Source: Lentilitoribacter sp. (GTDB lineage: Bacteria; Pseudomonadota; Alphaproteobacteria; Rhizobiales; Rhizobiaceae). Taken from it: a DNA stretch of 64,000 bases. The stretch spans positions 795,254-859,253 of the forward strand of contig OY829371.1 in the NCBI GenBank assembly GCA_963691785.1. The letters are read 5' to 3'. A program made the position numbers and the translations under genes. Numbering within the stretch: position 1 is the stretch's first letter; the number at the start of each line of letters is the position of its first letter. Below the pieces are notes generated by a model. The model did not search any database and had not been told where the DNA came from. It was given only the letters and a program-made list of their open reading frames with translations. Positions 14,528-34,794 of this stretch are shown one piece after another.

Positions 14528-16372
14528 TTATGAAATATCGTTCGGTTCGATTTGCGTATGTGAGTAGACAGTGTTCCTTGATACTCCCAATTTTCTTGCC
14601 GTTAACGCAATATTGGATTTGCATTCAGCAAAAACTCGATTGATTTCACGACACTTAGCTTCTTTCGCGCTATTCCCTTTGCAACGTGGACAAACTACAG
14701 TACGCAATTCCTGACCAGGAATATAGCGATGGACATGTTCAGCCCGTAAAATTGTAGCCGGGCAGTGTATGATTAAAGTAGTAAGTAACTTTTCCAAATC
14801 GTAGAAGTTGCTCAGCTTATGATTATCGAAGATGACATCTATTGCAGAACGGGATAATTGGTGATTTGCCGAAAGGCGAGACATTATTGAAACTGCTATT
14901 AATGCGGCATCCGTGCGCTCACTCAGTGCAGGGAGTTGAAACTCTTGCTGGCGTAACTTGGTGAAGGTCATGGAGACAAATTTAGACCAATGTTCTTGTT
15001 CTTTGGGCGGCTCATTTTCTGTGACGATGATCGACCATTTTGCCGAAGACTTGTGCTGCAACATTCGATTTACTAGCTGAGCTAATTGCTCCGAAGCATA
15101 TCCGGTCGCTTCTGACAGGTCTTCCAATACCAGAACACCACCCGATTCGATTGTAAATTTATCGCTTACGGTGTCACTGAAAAATTCGCCCGTCAATTCC
15201 TGACTGTCGGAGTTTAAGTTCGCAACCCTGCAATCCACAGCGATCAAAGGTTTTTCGGGACAAGTTGCCTGGTGCACAGCTTGTACAAATGTCGTACGTC
15301 CAGTTCCGGATGGGCCTATAACATATTGCGGCGTCATCATCTTAGCGGATCGAATTGCCAGCTTTAAACTGTTTCGAACTTGTTCGTCTCGGAACACTGG
15401 TGAGCTCGGAAGATTTGGAACTTCGTAAGTTGGCGGAAGGTTCAATGTCAAATTTTGTGAGTTTCGATTTGACGAAATCCTTGAAATGCGGAGCCGAGCA
15501 AAAAATGCAGAATTTAACCAGTCAACAAGTCGGACACTCTCTCCTCCACGCATAGCAGACAAATTCGAGTTGAAATCGGTCCTGAAGAGATCACTGAACT
15601 TGGTTAGGTTCGAAAAGTCCAATCCGTTCAAAAGTTGAGCGGCTCGACGGTTAGCGCCAAGGATCAAGCCTTGTTCATTGAAGCTAATCATACCAACGCT
15701 CTGTGTTTTCAAATACTCCTGTCGGGGATGAAATTGAATGATTATATTTGACCTATGATCCTCTACAAATAGACGGTTTTCTATGTTGGAAGCTGCCAGT
15801 TCAACCAATGCTTGGGTATGAAATTGACGCGCTGCGACCTCTGATGAAGCGTCAAGTAGGCCCACAATCTCGCCTTGACTGTTAAAGATTGGTGAGGACA
15901 CGCAAGAAACTTTACCGTGGGAAGAAAAATAGTGTTCAGGCCCCGTAACCATACTGGTGCGGCCGGTGTAAAGCGCAAGACCAAGCGCATTAGTACCACG
16001 ATGCTCTTCATCCCAGATGGTCCCGCAGCGAACCGCACGAGCACATTTAGACAAGCTAAATTCTGTATCCATAATTGCATCGAGCACAACACCGCGGTTG
16101 TCTGCAAATGCCGTCATATAGTTTGTACCGGCTATCTGGGTGCTCAATAGTTCGAGTTCTGGGCGTACCACACGTAGCAAAGCCTCATGTTTCTGACGAG
16201 TTTCGCGAAGGGCGGCCAATCCAATATCTGCATCCAGCGGTTTCCCGACTGGATCCAATCCGTGCCGTAAACATCTGTGCCAACTATCTGCAATATGCTC
16301 TGGAACAGCTCCTGGAGCAAAACGGCCTTTTGTTTCGAGCGCAGAGCGCGCTTTCATGAACATTGATTGCAC
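14528..16372 (-). CDS. GAF-domain (AcoR-like) Fis-HTH activator with a degenerate AAA+ domain
   Basis: SWHRC...GLDP, WDEEHRGTNALG GAF motifs and TARKLGVSRNTVY HTH. Walker A reads GPSGTGRT, Walker B reads LVLEDL, and there is no GAFTGA. GTG start with GGAGG RBS. Confidence 0.85.
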   Translation of the reverse strand: MQSMFMKARSALETKGRFAPGAVPEHIADSWHRCLRHGLDPVGKPLDADIGLAALRETRQKHEALLRVVRPELELLSTQIAGTNYMTAFADNRGVVLDAIMDTEFSLSKCARAVRCGTIWDEEHRGTNALGLALYTGRTSMVTGPEHYFSSHGKVSCVSSPIFNSQGEIVGLLDASSEVAARQFHTQALVELAASNIENRLFVEDHRSNIIIQFHPRQEYLKTQSVGMISFNEQGLILGANRRAAQLLNGLDFSNLTKFSDLFRTDFNSNLSAMRGGESVRLVDWLNSAFFARLRISRISSNRNSQNLTLNLPPTYEVPNLPSSPVFRDEQVRNSLKLAIRSAKMMTPQYVIGPSGTGRTTFVQAVHQATCPEKPLIAVDCRVANLNSDSQELTGEFFSDTVSDKFTIESGGVLVLEDLSEATGYASEQLAQLVNRMLQHKSSAKWSIIVTENEPPKEQEHWSKFVSMTFTKLRQQEFQLPALSERTDAALIAVSIMSRLSANHQLSRSAIDVIFDNHKLSNFYDLEKLLTTLIIHCPATILRAEHVHRYIPGQELRTVVCPRCKGNSAKEAKCREINRVFAECKSNIALTARKLGVSRNTVYSHTQIEPNDIS

Positions 16373-24935: not shown

Positions 24936-25301
24936 ATAAACGAGCGCCGTACTGATGATGCAGATCGTGTAGTTAAGGATATACGGCGACAAACACGACG
25001 CAAATATTCCTCAGAAGATAAGATACGGATTGTATTAGCTGGCCTTCGTGGTGAAGACAGCATTGCGGAATTGTGTCGACAAGTGGGTATAGCCCAGAGC
25101 CAATATTATTCATGGTCCAAGGGGTTTCTGGAAGCTGGTAAGAAGCGATTGGCTGGTGACACCGCCAGAGAGGCAAATACTGGTGAGGTAAAGAACCTTC
25201 GCAAAGAGGCTCGTGATTTAAAGGAAGTGGTTGTTGAGCAGGCTCTGGAATTGCGCTTACTCAAAAAAAGCATGTACGAAGATGGGGGAGACGACGAATG
25301 A
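24936..25301 (+). CDS. IS3 OrfA (HTH); no canonical start codon found in frame
   Basis: ...DADRVVKDIRRQTRRKYSSEDKIRIVLAGLRGEDSIAELCR...LRLLKKS; the position where Met is expected reads ATA (24936). Confidence 0.7.
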   Translation: MNERRTDDADRVVKDIRRQTRRKYSSEDKIRIVLAGLRGEDSIAELCRQVGIAQSQYYSWSKGFLEAGKKRLAGDTAREANTGEVKNLRKEARDLKEVVVEQALELRLLKKSMYEDGGDDE

Positions 25302-26278
25302 GGTACCCCGCATCTGAAAAGCTTGAGATCATTAAGTTGGTTGAACAATCACATCTGTCTGCCAAGCAAACACTGGAAAAGCTGGGTATTCCACGATCCA
25401 CTTTTTACCGCTGGTATGATTTGTATCAAACTGGCGGCGTGGATGCTTTGGAAGATAAAGCCCCAATGCCAGCACGGGTATGGAACCGTATCCCTGATGA
25501 TATCCGTGAGCAAATTGTTGATTTAGCACTGAATGAGCCAGAGCTTTCGCCTCGTGAGCTGGCGGTCAGATTTACAGATCAACAGCAATACTTCGTGTCA
25601 GAAGCCAGCGTTTACAGGCTGCTTAAATCACATGACCTGATCACCAGCCCAGCATATATTGTTATGAAGGCTGCTGACGAGTTCCGTGATAAGACAACAG
25701 CACCCAATCAGCTTTGGCAAACAGACTTCACGTACCTCAAAATCATCGGCTGGGGTTGGTTCTATCTATCAACGGTGCTGGATGATTATTCCAGATATAT
25801 CATCGCTCATAAGTTCACACCGACCATGGCAACCAAGGATGTGACAGATACATTGGATTTAGCTTTGCAGGCTTCTGGCCGCGATCAAACAAAGGTCATT
25901 CACAAGCCACGACTTCTCTCAGATAACGGGCCTAGTTATGTCTCGACAGAGTTGGCAGAATATCTTGATGCCAATGGCATGGCTCACACCAGAGGTGCAC
26001 CATATCACCCTCAGACACAGGGCAAGATTGAGCGTTGGCACCAAACGCTGAAGAACCGCATCCTGTTAGAAAATTACTTCATACCTGGTGATCTAGAACG
26101 ACAAATCGAGGCTTTCATCGAACATTATAATTACAATCGGTATCATGAAAGTTTCAGCAATCTAACGCCTGCAGATGTTTACTTCGGGCGAGGAAAACAA
26201 ATCTTACAACAAAGAGAAAGGATCAAACAAAAGACTATTGAACAGCGACGCTTGCAAAACAAAAGACAAGCCGCATAA
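25298..26278 (+). CDS. IS3 OrfB DDE transposase
   Basis: WQTDFTY, LSDNGPSY, QGKIERWH (D-D-E). Confidence 0.93.
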   Translation: MRYPASEKLEIIKLVEQSHLSAKQTLEKLGIPRSTFYRWYDLYQTGGVDALEDKAPMPARVWNRIPDDIREQIVDLALNEPELSPRELAVRFTDQQQYFVSEASVYRLLKSHDLITSPAYIVMKAADEFRDKTTAPNQLWQTDFTYLKIIGWGWFYLSTVLDDYSRYIIAHKFTPTMATKDVTDTLDLALQASGRDQTKVIHKPRLLSDNGPSYVSTELAEYLDANGMAHTRGAPYHPQTQGKIERWHQTLKNRILLENYFIPGDLERQIEAFIEHYNYNRYHESFSNLTPADVYFGRGKQILQQRERIKQKTIEQRRLQNKRQAA

Positions 26279-27758: not shown

Positions 27759-29060
27759 TTACCCACCAGACTTATGCACCACAAGCTGTAATTGGTCTCC
27801 GATCGATTGTGACGTCGGTCCATTATAAAGATCAAAAGGCAGCTCTAGATATGTCCAGGTTTCGATCAATGCAGATGTTAAAGCCTGAATGTGGTCTTCT
27901 GTGTGCAATGGTGATGGTGTGATGCGCAGGCGCTCGGTTCCACGCGGCACAGTCGGATAATTGATGGGTTGGATATAGATATTATGGACCTGCATCAGCC
28001 TGTCAGAGGCTTGTTTGCATAGATCCGCATCCCCAACCCAGAGCGGGATAATATGCGTGTCAGACGGCATAAGCGGCAGCTCAGCGTCGTGGAGCGCCTG
28101 TTTTGTTTGTAACACGCGCAATTGCTGCTGCTCGCGCTCGAACGAAGAAGATTTTAAATGCTGAATGGAAGCAATTGCTGCACTGGCGATCGCAGGTGGC
28201 AAGGCTTTTGTGAAAATAAAACCCGGCGCATAGGACCGTACACAGTCAATGATATTTTTTGACCCTGCGATGTACCCACCTAACACTCCAAAGGCTTTTG
28301 CAAGTGTTCCCTCAATAATATCGATGCGATGCGCGAGGCCTTCGCGCTCAGTGATGCCTCCACCATGATCACCATACATGCCCACAGCGTGAACTTCATC
28401 AATATAGGTAATGGCGTTGTATTGATCTGCAAGATCGGCAATGTCCTTGATCGGGGCTACATCACCATCCATGGAATAGACGGATTCAAAGGCAATGATT
28501 TTGGGTCTGTCTAAGTCTTCTGCTGCCAAAATTTTTTCAAGATGTTCCAGATCGTTGTGGCGGAAGATTTTCTTAGCGCAACCTGACTGGCGTATCCCTT
28601 CAATCATGGAAGCATGATTAAACTCATCGGAGATGATTAAACAATTGGGTAGCAACTTTGGCAGTGTGGAAAGTGTCGCCTGGTTAGAAACAAATCCGGA
28701 TGTGAATACCAGGGCAGCTTCCTTGTTGTGAAGATCAGCGAGTTCCTTTTCAAGCGCTACAATTGGATGTGATGTGCCTGAAATATTCCGTGTACCGCCT
28801 GCTCCGGTGCCGATGCTAGACGCAGAATTTGACATTGCCTTTATCACATTTTCATGCTGCCCCATACCGAGATAATCGTTCGAACACCAAATCGTGACTT
28901 CTTTTGCTGTATCTTTGCCATTGTCTTTGGTGTCATCGTGCGTGCGATAAATGGCTTTTGGAAACGAACCAACAATCCGCTCCAGATCTGCGAAAACACG
29001 ATAGCGATTTTCATCACGGAGTTGATCAATTGCATTTTCAAAATAATGCTGATGTTTCAT
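27759..29060 (-). CDS. hemA: 5-aminolevulinate synthase (C4 pathway)
   Basis: [55 protein letters not shown]. Confidence 0.95.
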
Positions 29061-29130: not shown

Positions 29131-29580
29131 TCACCCAAAAATTTTGGAAAAGAAGCCCTTTTTTGGAGGTTCTACAGTCGCGGCTGCGCTTTTCATAGCA
29201 CCAGCAACCAGTCCATATGTTTCAAGCCAGGCGTCTTTAACGTCAGGCGTGAATTCCTCGCCCAAACCCTTGTCGAGTGTGTAAATCAGCGCTTCACCAA
29301 CTGTGTCATAATGCTCGTCTTTAACGCCATATCCGACATGCTTTTTCGCCAGGTCCTGAATGGTCGGCAGGATTGTTTCCACCTGGTGCAAATTATTCAC
29401 GGCAACACCCAAAGTCTGCATCAATTTTGTTTTTTGATCTTTCATTTCCGCCGGAAACATAGAGCGTACGGAAGGCGCGATTTCAAACAGGCGGTCGTAA
29501 AAAATATCGGCAGCAGTTTCCGCAATGGGTTCAACTTTTGAAAAACTACCTTGAACCAGTTTAATTTGTTCTGGGGTCAT
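29131..29580 (-). CDS. single-domain (flavohaemoglobin-type) globin
   Basis: FYDRLFEIAP (TyrB10), DQKTKL (GlnE7), KKHVGYGV (HisF8), HYDTVGEAL; C-terminal KKGFFSKIFG. Confidence 0.92.
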   Translation of the reverse strand: MTPEQIKLVQGSFSKVEPIAETAADIFYDRLFEIAPSVRSMFPAEMKDQKTKLMQTLGVAVNNLHQVETILPTIQDLAKKHVGYGVKDEHYDTVGEALIYTLDKGLGEEFTPDVKDAWLETYGLVAGAMKSAAATVEPPKKGFFSKIFG

Positions 29581-29599: not shown

Positions 29600-30064
29600 T
29601 CAATTTAAGTTTTGTGTGGCTGCCTCCTGGCCCCCACTGTGGTAGATCATGAAGCGAACGGCGGATTCCACTTCAATATCGGTTAGCTCATCATTGCCGC
29701 CGCGTGCGGGCATATTGCCGCCAGATGGGCTTAAGAAACCGTTTTGAGCATTGGCCACGAGAACCTCCAATCCCTTTTCAATTCGTGGTGCCCAAAATTT
29801 GGATCCAGTAATTTTCGGGGCGCCGAAATTTCCGGTTCCATGACAAATTTTGCAATTTTGATCCCAAACCTGCGCCCCTTCTTCAATAAGGGTGAATTCG
29901 GTTTTGGGGAGACGCTCGATTTTAACGAGGCGTTTTAATCCACGCTCTGGATAAGGCGGATATTCCACCTTAATTTCATCAGCGATGGTTCCATGGGTGA
30001 GCAAAAACCCACCCATGACAAAGACACCGCCAACAAATTTTTGAAATTTTGTCAGCTGTTTCAT
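29600..30064 (-). CDS. cytochrome c5-family monohaem protein
   Basis: Signal peptide, CKICH, GAPK, W..RIEKG, NMPARGG (axial Met); start MKQLT at 30064. Confidence 0.88.
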   Translation of the reverse strand: MKQLTKFQKFVGGVFVMGGFLLTHGTIADEIKVEYPPYPERGLKRLVKIERLPKTEFTLIEEGAQVWDQNCKICHGTGNFGAPKITGSKFWAPRIEKGLEVLVANAQNGFLSPSGGNMPARGGNDELTDIEVESAVRFMIYHSGGQEAATQNLN

Positions 30065-30068
30065 GGTG

Positions 30069-30638
30069 TTAGCCTTCCAATGGAATTCGGATAACAACGC
30101 CACCCATAACATCGCCAACTTTAAAGTCAGTCCGCGGGCTGTCTTTATGCTCGTTGTGACAAGTTGCGCAAACCTCAGCAACAGCCACATCGGCATAAAC
30201 GGCAGTGAAATATTTCAGATCATCAATGACTTCTTCACCGTAGAAATTTTCGCCAATATTATCGGCAACAAATTTCAAACCTTCTTTTTCAAGCTCGGTT
30301 TGGTTTTCCGCATTTGGCTTGTTAATCGGCCAAAGTGACTGCAAAGAATATTCAAAAAGGTCGGTGCGATCAGCCACAGCTTCTGCACCCATGCGGAACA
30401 TTTGAGCAGGGAGTGGTGCTGAAATATCATCTTCAAAATTCTCAGTCGCCTTGATCAATTTATGTTCAGCGACCAGACGGCCAACGATCATTTTCGTGTA
30501 GATTGTGCGGTCAGAATCCATCACTGCATGCAGCATGTCGGTGACGTCTGCGGGGTCAATGCCGTCGGCATTTGTTGTCGAAACTGGTATGGCGGCAAGC
30601 AGGGCGCCTGCAACCAGCATATTGATTATTTTCGACAT
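30069..30638 (-). CDS. secreted DUF3365 (Tll0287-like) haem c protein
   Basis: Signal peptide, PLPAQMFR, SLWPINKPN, CATCH, FKVGDVMGGVVIRIP. Confidence 0.8.
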   Translation of the reverse strand: MSKIINMLVAGALLAAIPVSTTNADGIDPADVTDMLHAVMDSDRTIYTKMIVGRLVAEHKLIKATENFEDDISAPLPAQMFRMGAEAVADRTDLFEYSLQSLWPINKPNAENQTELEKEGLKFVADNIGENFYGEEVIDDLKYFTAVYADVAVAEVCATCHNEHKDSPRTDFKVGDVMGGVVIRIPLEG

Positions 30639-30677: not shown

Positions 30678-30722
30678 GCGAGGGATAGGATTTAGTGGGC
30701 CTAATCACGTCCTATTCCTCGC
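30678..30722 (-). other. intra-operon hairpin at the end of the multihaem gene
   Basis: GCGAGG-GATAGGA...TCCTATT-CCTCGC inverted repeat; weak U-tract on the minus strand. Confidence 0.45.
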
Positions 30723-32283
30723 GTCTCAATGCCCAATCGATGCTTTCAATATGCTTCGATGGACGCCCATTGAAATTATTTTCAACGAGTTCTGGGTCTG
30801 CCAGGGCATCAATGGAAAATCCTAACCCATGACATGACATACAAACCGGCCGGATCATTTTTTCGTTTGGCCGTAAAAAGTCGTTTTGATTGTGCGAAGT
30901 GAAGAAGCTGTCGCCAGCTTTAATTTTTGGCATATGGCAATCTGCGCAACTCACACCTGATCCTGGGGCGCCATCACCTGCAAGTTCCAACTGCCAAAGT
31001 TCAAAATGCCGCGAGTTAAAATAATTCTGCGTATGCGCATCATTATGACACGATGTGCAAGCTTCCACGGCAGCCACTTCAAGCTTGACGTCATGTGGTT
31101 TATGGCAGGTGTTGCAATTGCCAATTTCCATGTCATGCACATCCGGCTTCATCAAATCTTTGCGCGATGTTTGCCCCACGCTTGTGGGTCCCAATGGCGT
31201 ATCTTTGAACACATGCACCGCGACAGACATTGGGCCGTCAGCCTCAACGGTACGTGGCTTGGCGATCTCTGGGTGAAAACGCATACCATGCTTGCCCATT
31301 GTAAAGGTCTTGGCTTGGTTTTCATGGCAATCAGAACAAACGGCAAGCCCCGGTTTTTCGATCCAATTTTCTTCTAAAAGAACCAGATCAGTCATGTCTT
31401 TATAGTCTGGCGCGTGACAAGCCGCACAATTCAAACCGGCGCCAGCATGCGCTGATGTTTCCCATGCGGTGATAGCTTCCTCATCATGATATTGTTCGGG
31501 TGCGATCACATCTTTTGCATATAGAACAAGATCGAGCATCTCTTTCGCTTTCGCGCGATTATCAGGTTTTACCCCATCTTGCTCGGCGTTTTGGGTGTCG
31601 CGATCGTTCAAATATGATTCAAGTGCGGTGATCGGATCATCTTCGACCAAGGCGGTGCGGATGATCGGCGGTGTACGGCTCATTGCGGCAAATTCTTGAA
31701 TGGCATCGGGGAGAAAATCTTCACCATGGCCATGCTTGACTAAAAACGCTTCATAAAGCGCGGTATTGTCATGGTAGTTGTGGCAGCCAGCAGAGGCGCA
31801 TGTTGTAAACTCCAACCCGGCATGGCTTTCGCGTTCTTCACCAATTTTCGTGTGGCATGCAACGCAAAGATCCTGCGGCAAAGACACAGCCATGGGTCGG
31901 GTAATTTCCGGCACGTGTTCGGCATGGCAAGTTTGGCAGTAAAATGCATTTAATTGCGCACGTGTTTTGGCTTTTTTGGCACCTCTGAATTTTTTAGTCG
32001 GGTGGGAATCGTTTGCTGCGCTGAGCTCTTCAAGATGGCAGGTGCCGCATGCCTTGGTCATAGCCGCTGCAAGTTTTTTCGGGCTCTTAGTCAGATTGTC
32101 GATAAGCCCGGTTGTGTGGCAGCTTTCGCATGCCAGCTCAATTTGCCCGTGGGCTGCTGTTGTTTTCCCAATCAATAAAAGATGCCGTGGGCCACCAACA
32201 AAAACAACACCCATTATGATCATAATGCCCATGAGCGATAAGATGGTCCATAAAACCCAGAGCATATGATTTCGTTTAATCAA
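30712..32283 (-). CDS. membrane-anchored 11-haem cytochrome c
   Basis: Ten CxxCH (CESCH, CGTCH, CQTCH, CVACH, CAACH, CSDCH, CNTCH, CTSCH, CADCH, CMSCH) plus one CX4CH (CASAGCH); N-terminal TM; probable TTG start at 32283. Confidence 0.92.
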   Translation of the reverse strand: MIKRNHMLWVLWTILSLMGIMIIMGVVFVGGPRHLLLIGKTTAAHGQIELACESCHTTGLIDNLTKSPKKLAAAMTKACGTCHLEELSAANDSHPTKKFRGAKKAKTRAQLNAFYCQTCHAEHVPEITRPMAVSLPQDLCVACHTKIGEERESHAGLEFTTCASAGCHNYHDNTALYEAFLVKHGHGEDFLPDAIQEFAAMSRTPPIIRTALVEDDPITALESYLNDRDTQNAEQDGVKPDNRAKAKEMLDLVLYAKDVIAPEQYHDEEAITAWETSAHAGAGLNCAACHAPDYKDMTDLVLLEENWIEKPGLAVCSDCHENQAKTFTMGKHGMRFHPEIAKPRTVEADGPMSVAVHVFKDTPLGPTSVGQTSRKDLMKPDVHDMEIGNCNTCHKPHDVKLEVAAVEACTSCHNDAHTQNYFNSRHFELWQLELAGDGAPGSGVSCADCHMPKIKAGDSFFTSHNQNDFLRPNEKMIRPVCMSCHGLGFSIDALADPELVENNFNGRPSKHIESIDWALRREE

Positions 32284-32293
32284 ATCCCGTCCC

Positions 32294-34303
32294 CTAATAC
32301 ATATAAACAACGAGAACATGGATCGCGATCAGTACCGGCAAAGGCCATACCGCGATGATGTGTACCCACATTGGAAAGGTGCGCGGCTTGGCATTATTGG
32401 CGCTGAAACCACGCTCCTTTAATTCGTGTTCACCTCCTGTGATGAGACCAGCGATCGCGCCAAAAATGAGCGTAATGACGAAACTTAGCATCAAGAGGAG
32501 ATTAAAATTGCTGCCAAGTCGAAATCCGGTGTGCCAGACCAGGACGAGAGCGGCAGCAAAACCAATGATTAAATGTATAAGGCGCCAGGCTTGGTAACTG
32601 CCCAATTTGGATAAAAAACCAATTCGCTTTCGAAGCCCAATAATAGCCGCCGCGACAGATAGGCCGAGTAAGGTGTAGCCTGAATATTGCTTCCATATGG
32701 TGTCAAACCAAAGATCAAACCAAAAATCGTCCACGATGTAAGTGTCGGCCATGCCGATCCGTGGAAGCAACAAAGTAGCAAGGGCAGCCAAAGCACCAAG
32801 ACCGGATATGATGAGAAGCGCCTTCCACCATTTCACAGGTTCGGGTTTCATATCTCCTTGACCCAAAAGCTCATTGATCAATGGTCCGCAAGAGCCGCAA
32901 ACACTGTTGGCGCTTGTGGCTGAGCGGACATCATCGAGATTGGAAGCACCCAAGGTTATCGCATCGGAAATCGCGCCTTTCGTCACGCCAGTGCAATTGC
33001 AGATAATCGCTTCTTTGGGCCAGGTGGCAACGCTGTCATCTGCACCTTTCCACAATTGTCCAGAGCGTTGGAACGACCATATCTGCCAGGGCCAAACTGA
33101 AATTTTATCTCCAACGGCTTGCTGTAATTTTGTCGCTTCGGGCCAATCTCCGACACCTAAAGCTGCGACTAATTTTCCGCGCGAGACCAAAAGCCGACGA
33201 TAAACATCTGTCTCAATATCTCGATAGGTATAGCTTTTTATCCCGGGTTGTTGTTCGATGGATTCAAAATCGCCAATCGAGAACACATCAGCGCCGACCA
33301 CTTTTAATTTCGTGGTTGGTGTTGAACCTAAATAGATATTGCTCTCATCACCATTGATATCGGCAACAGCAATGTTTGTTTGCTCATAGCCCGGTCCAAC
33401 CAAGCCATAGACATGTTCATTGTGTTCAGCGCATTCACCGATCGCGTAAATATCGGGATCGGATGTGCACATTTGGTCATTGACGATGACACCGCGATTA
33501 TGCGCCAAACCAATCGCGGCAGGCAGCTGTGTATTGGCGCGAACGCCAGTACAAACAATCACAGTATCGGCTTTGATGGTATCACCATTTCCAAGTGTAA
33601 TAATTTCTGCGCGGGTATCGCCGTCAATTGATTGGACACGTTGGTTTACAACGACATCAATACCAATAGCCTCAATGCGGTCTTTTAATGTATTGCCAGC
33701 CGCTAAATCGAGTTGTCTTGGCATCAAACGATTTTCGTGTTCGACGACAGTGACCTTTGCGCCACGTTTGGCCATGCCTCTGGCAGCCTCGAGGCCAAGC
33801 AGTCCTCCGCCGATAACAACAACATTCCGGGCCGACATGGATCGGGCAATTAGAGCCTCGACATCATCAAAATTTCGGAACGAAAAAACACCTGATAGCT
33901 TCGAACCCTCAATATTGGGAATGAAGGCACGAGACCCAAGCGCGAAAATCAGTTTTGAATAGAAATATGTTCGACCGTTTGACGCTAGAACCTGCTTATT
34001 CTCTCGATCGATATCGATCGCCGACACACCATCATAACGATTGATTTTCCCTGGGCGAGGCGCATATTCGCTGGCATATATTTGCCCAAGCTGCGTCTCG
34101 CCGGCGAGAAGTGGGGTCAGTTTCACACGATTATAAGGACGCCAGCGTTCGGCATTTAACAGAATGACGTGGAACCCACTCCGCGACAATTCCTGCGCAG
34201 CACGCGTTCCTATAGGACCGCCACCGATAATAACGATGACGTTCTGATTGGCGACCGCAGTTTCGGCTTCTTCATCGAAGCCAATTTTCGTCGAGACATT
34301 CAT
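32294..34303 (-). CDS. NirB-N-terminus-like NAD(P)H/FAD oxidoreductase + BFD-like [2Fe-2S] + C-terminal di-haem b membrane domain fusion
   Basis: IIGGGPIG (FAD), VIGGGLLGLE (NAD), CNC...CGSC, then about 5 TM segments with two H-x13-H motifs; no sirohaem/4Fe-4S domain. Confidence 0.88.
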   Translation of the reverse strand: MNVSTKIGFDEEAETAVANQNVIVIIGGGPIGTRAAQELSRSGFHVILLNAERWRPYNRVKLTPLLAGETQLGQIYASEYAPRPGKINRYDGVSAIDIDRENKQVLASNGRTYFYSKLIFALGSRAFIPNIEGSKLSGVFSFRNFDDVEALIARSMSARNVVVIGGGLLGLEAARGMAKRGAKVTVVEHENRLMPRQLDLAAGNTLKDRIEAIGIDVVVNQRVQSIDGDTRAEIITLGNGDTIKADTVIVCTGVRANTQLPAAIGLAHNRGVIVNDQMCTSDPDIYAIGECAEHNEHVYGLVGPGYEQTNIAVADINGDESNIYLGSTPTTKLKVVGADVFSIGDFESIEQQPGIKSYTYRDIETDVYRRLLVSRGKLVAALGVGDWPEATKLQQAVGDKISVWPWQIWSFQRSGQLWKGADDSVATWPKEAIICNCTGVTKGAISDAITLGASNLDDVRSATSANSVCGSCGPLINELLGQGDMKPEPVKWWKALLIISGLGALAALATLLLPRIGMADTYIVDDFWFDLWFDTIWKQYSGYTLLGLSVAAAIIGLRKRIGFLSKLGSYQAWRLIHLIIGFAAALVLVWHTGFRLGSNFNLLLMLSFVITLIFGAIAGLITGGEHELKERGFSANNAKPRTFPMWVHIIAVWPLPVLIAIHVLVVYMY

Positions 34304-34328
34304 AAATTAACTCGCAAGAAATGTCGTC

Positions 34329-34379
34329 AAAAGAAAAAACGCCATATACGCAAATGTGATCACATTTGCGTATATGGCG
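34329..34379 (-). terminator. leader attenuator terminator
   Basis: Perfect 40-bp palindrome 34340-34379 followed on the minus strand by UUUUUUCUUUU, 37 nt before the ATG. Confidence 0.88.
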
Positions 34380-34407
34380 CCATTGCCCGAATGCCCTTCA
34401 TTGGGCA
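34376..34407 (-). promoter_or_regulatory. ANTAR dual-hexaloop antiterminator RNA motif
   Basis: P1 UGCCC-AAUGAA-GGGCA and P2 GGC-AAUGGC-GCC; both loops have A1/G4 and C-G closing pairs; P2 overlaps the terminator 5' arm. Confidence 0.85.
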
Positions 34408-34417
34408 GAACAAACTA

Positions 34418-34434
34418 TGCAAGTAGTGTGCCAA
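34418..34434 (-). promoter_or_regulatory. sigma-54 (-24/-12) promoter
   Basis: Minus strand TTGGCACACTACTTGCA matches TGGCAC-N5-TTGCW with correct GG-N10-GC spacing, just upstream of the ANTAR motif. Confidence 0.9.
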
Positions 34435-34516
34435 ACGAATTAAAGTAATAAAAACAATACAATCAAAGATTTTCTCAGAATGTAAATACAGGCTGAAAGT
34501 TTAAATTTTAGGGCTT

Positions 34517-34533
34517 TGCTCAATGTATGTGCA
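34517..34533. promoter_or_regulatory. NtrC-like enhancer site
   Basis: TGCTC-N7-GTGCA (one mismatch to TGCAC-N7-GTGCA) about 100 bp upstream of the sigma-54 promoter; adjacent TGCAC half-site at 34535. Confidence 0.65.
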
Positions 34534-34794
34534 GTGCACAATTTTAATCATCTTGGCAGATGAAAGTGATATGTTCAAATTAATGGCGCTGAACATAAAA
34601 GGCCTTTGTATTTGGACACCGATGAACTACGGGATAGATCAAACGTTAGGAAAATATTGCTCTAAATCGGTTTGGCTCACAAGATCTGGACCGCGCAGTT
34701 CGGACCAGATTAGCCTTACCGGTAATCAAAGTTAGAGCATTGTTTGCCCATAAGAATTGAGCTTACGAAAAGTGACTAAATTTAAATCGGTTCT

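Follow-up and report, generated by a model that had tools for sequence, protein, structure and literature searches.

An 11-haem cytochrome c with a candidate pruned HAO/ONR/NrfA-type scaffold in a predicted transmembrane electron-transfer cassette

Results

A multihaem cytochrome gene in a Lentilitoribacter contig

Here, we analysed a 64,000-nucleotide stretch of DNA from Lentilitoribacter sp. (contig OY829371.1, positions 795,254 to 859,253 of the forward strand), referred to below as the window, and in particular a minus-strand gene for a multihaem c-type cytochrome. Its longest open reading frame covers 30712-32319 and would yield 535 amino acids from the ATG at 32319, from which all residue numbers of the cytochrome are counted; numbering from the TTG at 32283 is obtained by subtracting 12. 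The parts of the gene are as follows.

30712..32283, minus strand: undecahaem c-type cytochrome gene, 523 amino acids from TTG 32283
32194..32265, minus strand: predicted N-terminal transmembrane signal-anchor helix, residues 19-42 (hydropathy scan)
31771..32151, minus strand: N-block with five haem sites (haems 1-5), residues 57-183
31780..31800, minus strand: CX4CH haem-5 site C174-A-S-A-G-C179-H180, followed by an invariant N-Y/F-H-D-N
31429..31779, minus strand: haem-free linker, residues 181-297
30715..31464, minus strand: C-block with six haem sites (haems 6-11) on a candidate HAO/ONR/NrfA-type scaffold
31117..31323, minus strand: stretch between haems 7 and 8, residues 333-401, devoid of Cys, in which NrfA, ONR and HAO carry their catalytic haem motif

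The TTG at 32283, which lies 10 nt past the stop codon of the upstream gene and behind the Shine-Dalgarno-like GGGGACGGGA, is the likely start of the cytochrome, as both the lengths of its homologues and the 10-nt spacing favour it. The minus-strand translation bears out the preliminary description of this DNA, which had reported ten CxxCH motifs and one CASAGCH, no CxxCK of the NrfA type, and a haem-free linker of ~120 amino acids between blocks of five and six haems. The first block comprises CESCH, CGTCH, CQTCH, CVACH and CASAGCH (first Cys at residues 64, 91, 128, 152 and 174), and the second CAACH, CSDCH, CNTCH, CTSCH, CADCH and CMSCH (298, 328, 402, 421, 458 and 493); 117 residues separate H180 from C298, and CxxCK is absent from the translated cytochrome.

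These motifs are not due to chance, since residue-shuffled versions of the protein contained a mean of 0.06 CxxCH (maximum 3). Moreover, 22 of the 23 Cys lie within haem motifs, the remaining one being upstream of the TTG start. None of the 11 haem sites varies in sets of 60 and 76 homologues, and all of them are also kept in 33 divergent cluster representatives sharing 28-45% identity with the cytochrome. Judged from its sequence and that of its relatives, the gene is predicted to encode a genuine 11-haem cytochrome.

The C-block resembles enzymes that carry a further, catalytic haem

The C-block had initially been taken for a catalytic module resembling the HAO/NrfA superfamily. The homology part of this proposal was upheld: profile comparison with the PDB returned TvNiR (1e-12), ONR (3e-9), NrfA (1e-8) and HAO (1e-6), as well as IhOCC and OcwA. 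The catalytic part was not, as no haem motif occupies the catalytic position. The structural comparison suggested at the time was also carried out. Modelled alone with AlphaFold2 (AF2), the C-block reached a predicted local distance difference test score (pLDDT) of 90.9 and a predicted template modelling score (pTM) of 0.84, and the seven best Foldseek matches of this model all belong to the HAO family (probability 0.91-0.99, TMq 0.38-0.51), short NrfA segments ranking after them. With the full-length AF2 model, Foldseek gave only matches with E above 1.

The alignments allow most haems of the C-block to be placed. Haems 10-11 (CADCHMPK...TSH...CMSCH) correspond to NrfA haems 4-5 and to TvNiR haems 7-8. 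Haem 8 (CNTCH-x2-H) aligns with NrfA haem 2 (CANCHDP), with TvNiR haem 5 (CFMCHDPH) and also with HAO haem 5 (C239DNCH-x2-H246), while haem 9 aligns with HAO haem 6 (C259ATCH263). The NrfA, TvNiR and HAO registers agree, haems 8-11 being equivalent to NrfA haems 2-5 (HAO 5-8). Haems 6-7 align with either TvNiR haems 1-2 or HAO haems 2-3, a register that is ambiguous because of the repeated di-haem units.

The stretch before haem 8 aligns with residues 147-199 of 1oah, directly past the catalytic CWNCK of NrfA; in HAO, H233 closes the motif of catalytic haem 4, just ahead of the region aligned to haem 8. Neither CxxCK nor a twelfth haem motif was found in any family member checked (the 33 divergent representatives), and H395 of the window's protein, near the catalytic-haem position, is only 30% conserved. 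Haems 8 and 9 are separated by 19 amino acids and haems 9 and 10 by 37, where the corresponding segments of NrfA, which build its active site, measure ~41 and 74 amino acids; in the alignment, the NrfA active-site loops are shortened or absent from the C-block.

Overall, sequence profiles and the structural model place the C-block in the HAO/ONR/NrfA homologous group, as a distant relative. It appears to keep framework positions 5-8 together with two N-terminal positions and to have catalytic position 4 pruned, given the concordant registers and the lack of any Cys where the catalytic haem would be attached. This group has been reported to have evolved by haem pruning and grafting. Cytochrome c554 was described as a non-catalytic derivative within it that serves electron transfer only, and the nona- and undecahaem OcwA and OmhA were also assigned to it. 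The C-block seems to fit this published picture.

The CX4CH spacing at haem 5 appears dispensable

The preliminary description had proposed that the extended CX4CH motif marks a special, possibly catalytic haem, and that its conservation should be checked. C174-A-x-x-G-C179-H180 is invariant in relatives down to ~40% identity, and the N-Y/F-H-D-N that follows is the most conserved peptide of the cytochrome family. In 8 of the 33 divergent representatives, a plain CxxCH replaces CX4CH while the CHNYHDN context is kept; the haem site is thus retained and the X4 spacing lost. As these eight relatives do without it, the spacing is not needed, and it is haem 5 itself that is conserved. The haems of cytochrome c3 are ordinary bis-His electron carriers. 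In this tetrahaem protein, CX4CH has been found twice per molecule. With this precedent and the eight CxxCH relatives, the idea of a special haem was not borne out, and the CX4CH spacing provides no evidence for one. Dedicated haem lyases serve the CxxCK of NrfA and the CX15CH of MccA; the gene content of the cassette described below includes no dedicated haem-lyase gene. On this view, the general maturation system would attach haem at the CX4CH site, as at any ordinary site.

Conserved His residues match the number of haems

We then considered which residues outside the haem motifs are conserved. Across both sets of sequences, the homologues and the 33 divergent representatives, His residues conserved at 97% or more number exactly 11, namely 57, 106, 135, 166, 183, 291, 344, 409, 429, 438 and 476, and H349, H196 and H523 drop out in divergent members. 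Otherwise, conservation of 94% or more among the 33 representatives is limited to Met 364, Met 488 and a small number of Gly, Pro, Asp and hydrophobic positions. In the same set, candidate catalytic residues vary (K487 85%, Q478 71%, E486 47%, R356 21%). This pattern looks like that of an electron-transfer multihaem protein: the feature expected of the bis-His class, 11 His for 11 haems with other polar residues variable, is found in the conservation. A pure bis-His wire, the case that the preliminary description had set against its own proposal, appears more likely because the conserved non-motif His equal the haems in number.

Membrane anchor, N-block and linker

The AF2 model places a helix at residues 13-40 (pLDDT up to 96), where the signal anchor was predicted. 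The N-block, which contains the conserved candidate distal His 57, 106, 135, 166 and 183, matches Pfam Cytochrom_c3_2 (E 6e-16); against the PDB, its profile revealed weak likeness only, the best match being OcwA (7e-5), followed by NrfH (2e-3) and ACIII ActA (~1e-2). The linker is poorly conserved in sequence, varies from 68 to 117 amino acids across the family and is predicted to be helical with high pLDDT. Taken together with the C-block, sequence and models suggest that the cytochrome is a chimera composed of a five-haem N-block, a variable helical linker and a six-haem C-block.

The N-block had been described as an electron wire fed by b haems in the membrane. Such a feed is reasonable, because two i/i+14 His pairs encoded upstream are 100% conserved (n=78) and the domain bearing them weakly matches DUF4405, as detailed in the next section.

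The cytochrome belongs to a co-directional cassette

The genes around the cytochrome are co-directional on the minus strand and are parted by short gaps or overlaps. Their products and the elements of the 5' leader are listed below.

34418..34433, minus strand: candidate sigma-54-type promoter TGGCACactacTTGCA, a perfect match, upstream of the flavoprotein gene
34338..34381, minus strand: perfect 20-bp hairpin followed by a T-run in the 5' leader, between promoter and start codon
32294..34303, minus strand: flavoprotein, with a NirB-N-terminal-like FAD/NAD(P)H reductase, a BFD-type [2Fe-2S] domain and five C-terminal transmembrane segments (Pfam, NCBIfam)
32297..32851, minus strand: membrane domain of the flavoprotein, whose His pairs 577/591 and 648/662 are presumed to bind two b haems
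30069..30638, minus strand: secreted Tll0287-like (sCache_haem) protein with one CATCH site (Pfam E 3e-16)
29600..30064, minus strand: class-I monohaem cytochrome c (CKICH), membrane-anchored or secreted (Pfam)
29131..29580, minus strand: cytoplasmic single-domain globin (Pfam, NCBIfam)
27759..29060, minus strand: 5-aminolevulinate (ALA) synthase, at the end of the cassette (TIGR01821, 639 bits against a cut-off of 339)

Across 45 sequences, the flavoprotein retains its Rossmann motifs and C435-x-C437...C469-x-x-C472. The four His of its membrane domain form the two i/i+14 pairs and are conserved in all 78 sequences. DUF4405, a published family of haem-b proteins for transmembrane electron transfer, is matched with E 0.002 and 19 bits, below the Pfam cut-off of 26.7.

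The Tll0287-like protein, hereafter the Cache-haem protein, lacks the Cys axial ligand of Tll0287, while M80, H164 and M178 are invariant. Neither its single sequence nor its profile found anything significant in the PDB, Tll0287 included. It is one of the stand-alone sCache_haem proteins, for which a redox role has been suspected and whose function was left open in the literature. The longest open reading frame of the monohaem cytochrome c, 29600-30196, overlaps the Cache-haem gene by 128 nt. Homologue lengths of 146-154 amino acids indicate that the start is rather the ATG at 30064, 4 nt past the stop codon of the Cache-haem gene. The PDB relatives of the globin are HGbI-type globins, neuroglobin and Vitreoscilla haemoglobin. 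The ALA synthase gene is linked to the cytochrome in 5 of 84 loci (the window and four others) and probably supplies haem to a module that needs about 16 haems.

An IS-type transposase (helix-turn-helix and rve integrase core, 326 amino acids) is encoded at 25071-26278 on the plus strand, after a small overlapping open reading frame and ~1.5 kb beyond the ALA synthase end, and the junction at which the cassette lies may be mobile or have undergone rearrangement. A biofilm metatranscriptome (run X14) also contained relatives of the operon. There, contig depth was ~150-176 for the Cache-haem gene, 2-39 for the cytochrome and 0-5 for the flavoprotein; depth is a poor measure of expression, and the contrast hints at an internal promoter or at differential transcript stability.

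A sigma-54-type promoter and a hairpin precede the cassette

Sigma-54 promoters with at most one mismatch were found in 7 of 43 loci whose flavoprotein has the architecture of the window's (type A), against 0.3 in shuffled sequences. The promoter was absent from the Rhodobacteraceae loci and from the type-B loci (defined below) that were scanned; in the lineage of the window, it appears to be real. The hairpin downstream of it (dG -43 kcal/mol, z -5.5) is the only one of its kind in the window and resembles an attenuator or terminator; the Rfam scan assigned it to no family and gave only a sub-threshold match to a generic hairpin. Upstream of the promoter, at about 34528-34540, the inverted repeat TGTGCAcTGCACA (TGTGCA-n-TGCACA) may be an activator site. 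Promoter, inverted repeat and hairpin (leader 34304-34560, minus strand) are all conserved in the two closest loci.

Boxes for FNR/NnrR, NsrR, Irr, RirA and Fur showed no enrichment over shuffled sequences upstream of the cassette in 76 loci. Within the window, a 614-amino-acid GAF-domain protein (14528-16372, minus strand) resembles AcoR-type regulators at its N-terminus. No sigma-54 activation domain was detectable in it, and it is thus not an obvious activator of the cassette; no activator gene was found in the window.

A compact family with a conserved three-component core

About 1959 database proteins match the cytochrome, and relatives occur in at least 588 species-level genomes. Most carriers are marine Alphaproteobacteria, including a Rhizobiaceae metagenome-assembled genome (MAG) with 91% identity, Lentilitoribacter (81%), Roseibium, Acuticoccus, many Rhodobacteraceae, Minwuia and Defluviicoccus; Gammaproteobacteria are represented by Arenicellales, Granulosicoccaceae and Pseudomonadales, and many of the sequences come from sponge-associated MAGs. 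Thalassococcus halodurans, Donghicola eburneus, Epibacterium ulvae, Acuticoccus and Pelagimonas are examples of carriers that can be cultured. The family forms a compact set of 199 clusters (E <= 1e-30) in a library of 1.84 billion cluster representatives. Its members are named "ammonia-forming cytochrome c nitrite reductase subunit c552", "cytochrome c3 family" or "DmsE family decahaem" in the source databases, and no prior description of the cytochrome or of the operon was found in the literature.

Gene order is well conserved. The Cache-haem gene lies directly downstream of the cytochrome in 80 of 84 loci; the gene ahead of the cytochrome encodes a protein with this type of membrane domain in 79 of 82. 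The monohaem cytochrome c occurs in 31 and the globin in 45 of 84 loci, and no other neighbour beyond the cassette is conserved in more than 12 of 82. The invariant core is therefore formed by the membrane domain, the undecahaem cytochrome and the Cache-haem protein.

The locus analysis also revealed what is joined to the membrane domain. A NirB-type reductase with BFD is fused to it in 48 loci, usually together with the globin and often with the cytochrome c. In about 33 loci from Gammaproteobacteria and sponge MAGs (type B), all without globin, the fusion partner is a GPP34 domain. A third architecture (L085:125-2758, 877 amino acids) consists of two cNMP-binding domains, BFD [2Fe-2S], an FNR-type FAD domain and, again, the membrane domain, which suggests cyclic-nucleotide control of electron export; in L086, the membrane domain is a separate protein of 212 amino acids. 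Two unrelated NAD(P)H flavoreductases, NirB-type and FNR-type, thus appear to have been recruited to the core. A word-indexed homologue search with the membrane domain returned six matches and no new architecture.

The GPP34 (Golgi phosphoprotein 3-like) gene is found directly upstream of the cytochrome in L020, L022, L040 and ~30 more loci (Pfam E 3e-41), and its fusion represents an unexplained role of the bacterial GPP34 domain. Two further proteins look like fusions of the cytochrome: P0239 joins a BFD domain, a membrane segment and the N-block, with a C-terminus that looks frameshifted, and P0214 (831 amino acids) joins an MFS-like protein of 12 transmembrane segments to the cytochrome. 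Both may be real fusions or gene-calling artefacts.

Discussion

Proposed role of the cytochrome

On balance, we consider it fairly probable that the cytochrome acts as a wire or capacitor without a catalytic haem. It would face the periplasm, held in the inner membrane by its N-terminal helix. NAD(P)H would reduce the FAD of the flavoprotein, from which electrons would pass to the [2Fe-2S] cluster and then across the membrane through the two b haems. They would enter the membrane-proximal N-block and pass along the 11 c haems, to be handed on to the Cache-haem protein and/or the monohaem cytochrome c. Each of the 11 haems would be six-coordinate, and most or all of them bis-His, although one may be His/Met through M488 or M364. 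In aerobic marine bacteria, a low-potential bis-His chain with NAD(P)H instead of ubiquinol as its electron source would be thermodynamically sensible. The extra ALA synthase hints at a high haem demand and, with the globin, at chemistry related to NO or O2, to which the globin points weakly.

Several points weigh against this reading. The match of 11 His to 11 haems is arithmetic, not structure. The direction of flow, from NAD(P)H to the periplasm, is itself a deduction, and the type-B (GPP34) and stand-alone versions of the membrane domain come without an NAD(P)H module. Most of the remaining points concern a possible active site. They would favour the view that the cytochrome is an enzyme which reduces a small periplasmic N- or S-oxide with NAD(P)H-derived electrons at a non-canonical site, either the vacated HAO/NrfA pocket refilled, e.g., by haem 5, or an open haem at position 2 like that of OTR, MccA and c554.

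The conserved segment 476-490 lies at what we take to be the place of the HAO pocket residue Tyr334, and a remodelled pocket around it is conceivable from the sequence; M488, within this segment, and M364 are both conserved. Moreover, GCHN[FY]HDN and LRPNEKMI combine the highest conservation with the lowest AF2 confidence (pLDDT below 50 for the former), which would fit packing that depends on a cofactor. The invariant H429 and D427 (91%) align, with a shift of one residue, with His268 and Asp267 of HAO, which follow the haem-6 motif and were described as distal-pocket residues and not as haem ligands. The cytochrome may also retain framework position 2, at which OTR, MccA and c554 were reported to have an open haem, and members of the group generally reduce nitrite or NO in vitro, with catalytic haems at position 2 or 4.

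We nevertheless regard an enzymatic role as unlikely. The 11 conserved non-motif His would suffice for 11 bis-His haems, and K487, E486, R356 and Q478, the candidate catalytic residues, vary. A CxxCH-DD...S-H pattern similar to that around D427-x-H429 is found in the pure wire MtrA. Finally, the X4 spacing at haem 5 is dispensable, and neither OTR nor MccA was matched significantly.

Electrons might also flow in the opposite direction, from a periplasmic or extracellular donor through the c haems and b haems to the quinone pool or the cytoplasmic flavoprotein. The membrane domains lacking an NAD(P)H input module would fit this, HAO-type relatives are oxidative, and multihaem wires are reversible. 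We find this reading quite improbable: two independent fusions of an NAD(P)H flavoreductase with [2Fe-2S] are easier to understand as electron input, MsrQ, PepSY-like proteins and DUF4405 are described as serving extracytosolic redox activities, and electron transfer from bis-His c haems to NAD(P)+ would be energetically unfavourable with most donors.

The names of its homologues and a passed Pfam Cytochrom_C552 model (residues 439-497 only) would make the cytochrome a true NrfA, an ammonia-forming nitrite reductase (cytochrome c552). This is very improbable indeed, since the NCBIfam equivalogs give 20-23 bits against cut-offs of 595-692, no member has a haem motif at the catalytic position, the active-site loops are absent, and the protein differs from NrfA in its 11 haems, its membrane anchor and its partners, nrfH and nrfBCD genes being absent. 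Membership of NrfA was rejected on the missing CxxCK and on equivalog models failed by more than 500 bits. The database name arises from a Pfam match restricted to the last two haems, and, as judged from the sequence, the label NrfA is misleading and wrong.

Going back to the wire as the preferred reading, it is possible, though doubtful, that the three-gene core constitutes a new transmembrane electron-export system, similar in principle to NOX and ferric reductases, which ends in 13 periplasmic c haems and includes a site reactive towards a small molecule. Such a site, for NO, O2 or a related molecule, may reside in a refilled HAO-type pocket or in the Cache-haem subunit, where the Cys that serves Tll0287 as a ligand is missing. 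In the window's version, the system may be fed by NAD(P)H. If true, this would reveal an undescribed periplasmic redox activity in aerobic marine bacteria and sponge symbionts and provide the first function for stand-alone Cache-haem proteins.

Significance

Hundreds of genomes and MAGs of marine Alpha- and Gammaproteobacteria carry the cytochrome under the name "ammonia-forming nitrite reductase NrfA c552". A potential for dissimilatory nitrate reduction to ammonium deduced from such labels is unsafe, because the cytochrome lacks the catalytic haem of NrfA. From an evolutionary point of view, the cytochrome offers a clear example from nature of how haems are pruned and grafted within the HAO/ONR/NrfA group: what was an enzyme scaffold seems to have become a wire and to have been joined to a haem block with a membrane anchor. 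As for physiology, the trio points to an uncharacterised low-potential electron route across the inner membrane of aerobic marine bacteria that are largely of the ubiquinone type, a route supported by the two independent fusions of NAD(P)H flavoreductases. Moreover, stand-alone Cache-haem (Tll0287-like) proteins gain a concrete partner and a testable role.

Comparison with known systems

The strongest sequence matches of the cytochrome are TvNiR/ONR and NrfA. It shares with NrfA the signature of haems 2-5, CxxCHMPK...H...CxxCH, and Pfam Cytochrom_C552 (PF02335) is passed with 37 bits against a cut-off of 24, for the last two haems only. NrfA carries a CxxCK haem 1 (rarely CxxCH) upstream of haem 2, whereas the cytochrome has no CxxCK and no Cys there. 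The NrfA equivalog models are failed (NF008339, 23.4 bits against 595; TIGR03152, 20.3 against 692.5), the active-site loops with their Tyr, His and Ca site are missing, and the partners differ.

The best structural matches to the C-block are HAO/HDH proteins, namely N. europaea HAO (4fas/4n4n), Kuenenia Kustc0458 (6h5l) and Brocadia HAO (6t5e). The colinear profile alignment covers HAO residues 139-320, and the likeness extends to the His two residues past the haem 8 motif and to the D-H region. HAO has eight haems where the C-block has six, the motifs of haem 4 (P460) and haem 1 being absent, and it lacks the extra membrane-anchored five-haem block. Tyr467 of HAO, which cross-links to the catalytic haem in the oxidative members, lies ~100 residues past haem 8, whereas the cytochrome ends 38 residues past H497 of haem 11 and has no C-terminal extension to hold such a Tyr. 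The nonahaem OcwA and the undecahaem OmhA of Gram-positive metal reducers belong to the same homologous group, with weak and segmental similarity. Both are cell-surface terminal reductases whose haem complement and partners differ from those of the cytochrome, and OcwA retains open-coordination haems. OTR gave no match and MccA an E of 5.4, and the cytochrome has no CX15CH motif.

With NrfH/CymA/NapC and with ACIII ActA, the cytochrome shares a membrane helix at the N-terminus and, after it, four or five haems in close succession. The NrfH model TIGR03153 gives 18.9 bits against 134 (E 1e-3), and the N-block has five haems where the NrfH family has four. In NrfH/NapC-type proteins the quinol site belongs to the cytochrome itself, whereas here electrons appear to enter from a separate di-haem-b domain. 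DUF4405, PepSY-like proteins, MsrQ/FRD and the eukaryotic NOX likewise have two His pairs on two membrane-spanning helices, and in such di-haem-b exporters a cytoplasmic flavin/NAD(P)H module also feeds an extracytoplasmic acceptor. Unlike them, the membrane domain studied here is fused through BFD [2Fe-2S] to a NirB- or FNR-type reductase and would deliver electrons to a periplasmic chain of 13 c haems.

Cytochrome c3 also has CX4CH sites, one of which reads C-G-T-A-G-C-H. The N-block profile found no c3 structure, and the parallel thus rests on the motif and the literature; Pfam Cytochrom_CIII, with 22.8 bits, falls just short of its cut-off of 22.9, and the match lies at residues 290-338, away from the CX4CH site. 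The DmsE/MtrA decahaem model TIGR03508 reaches 50.6 bits against 192, over residues 277-343 only.

Overall, the cytochrome appears to lack the defining features of NrfA, ONR, HAO, NrfH, DmsE/MtrA and c3, and profiles and model place it with HAO/ONR/NrfA at the level of the superfamily. What is new is the combination of a pruned catalytic scaffold with a membrane-anchored haem block, within an undescribed three-component module.

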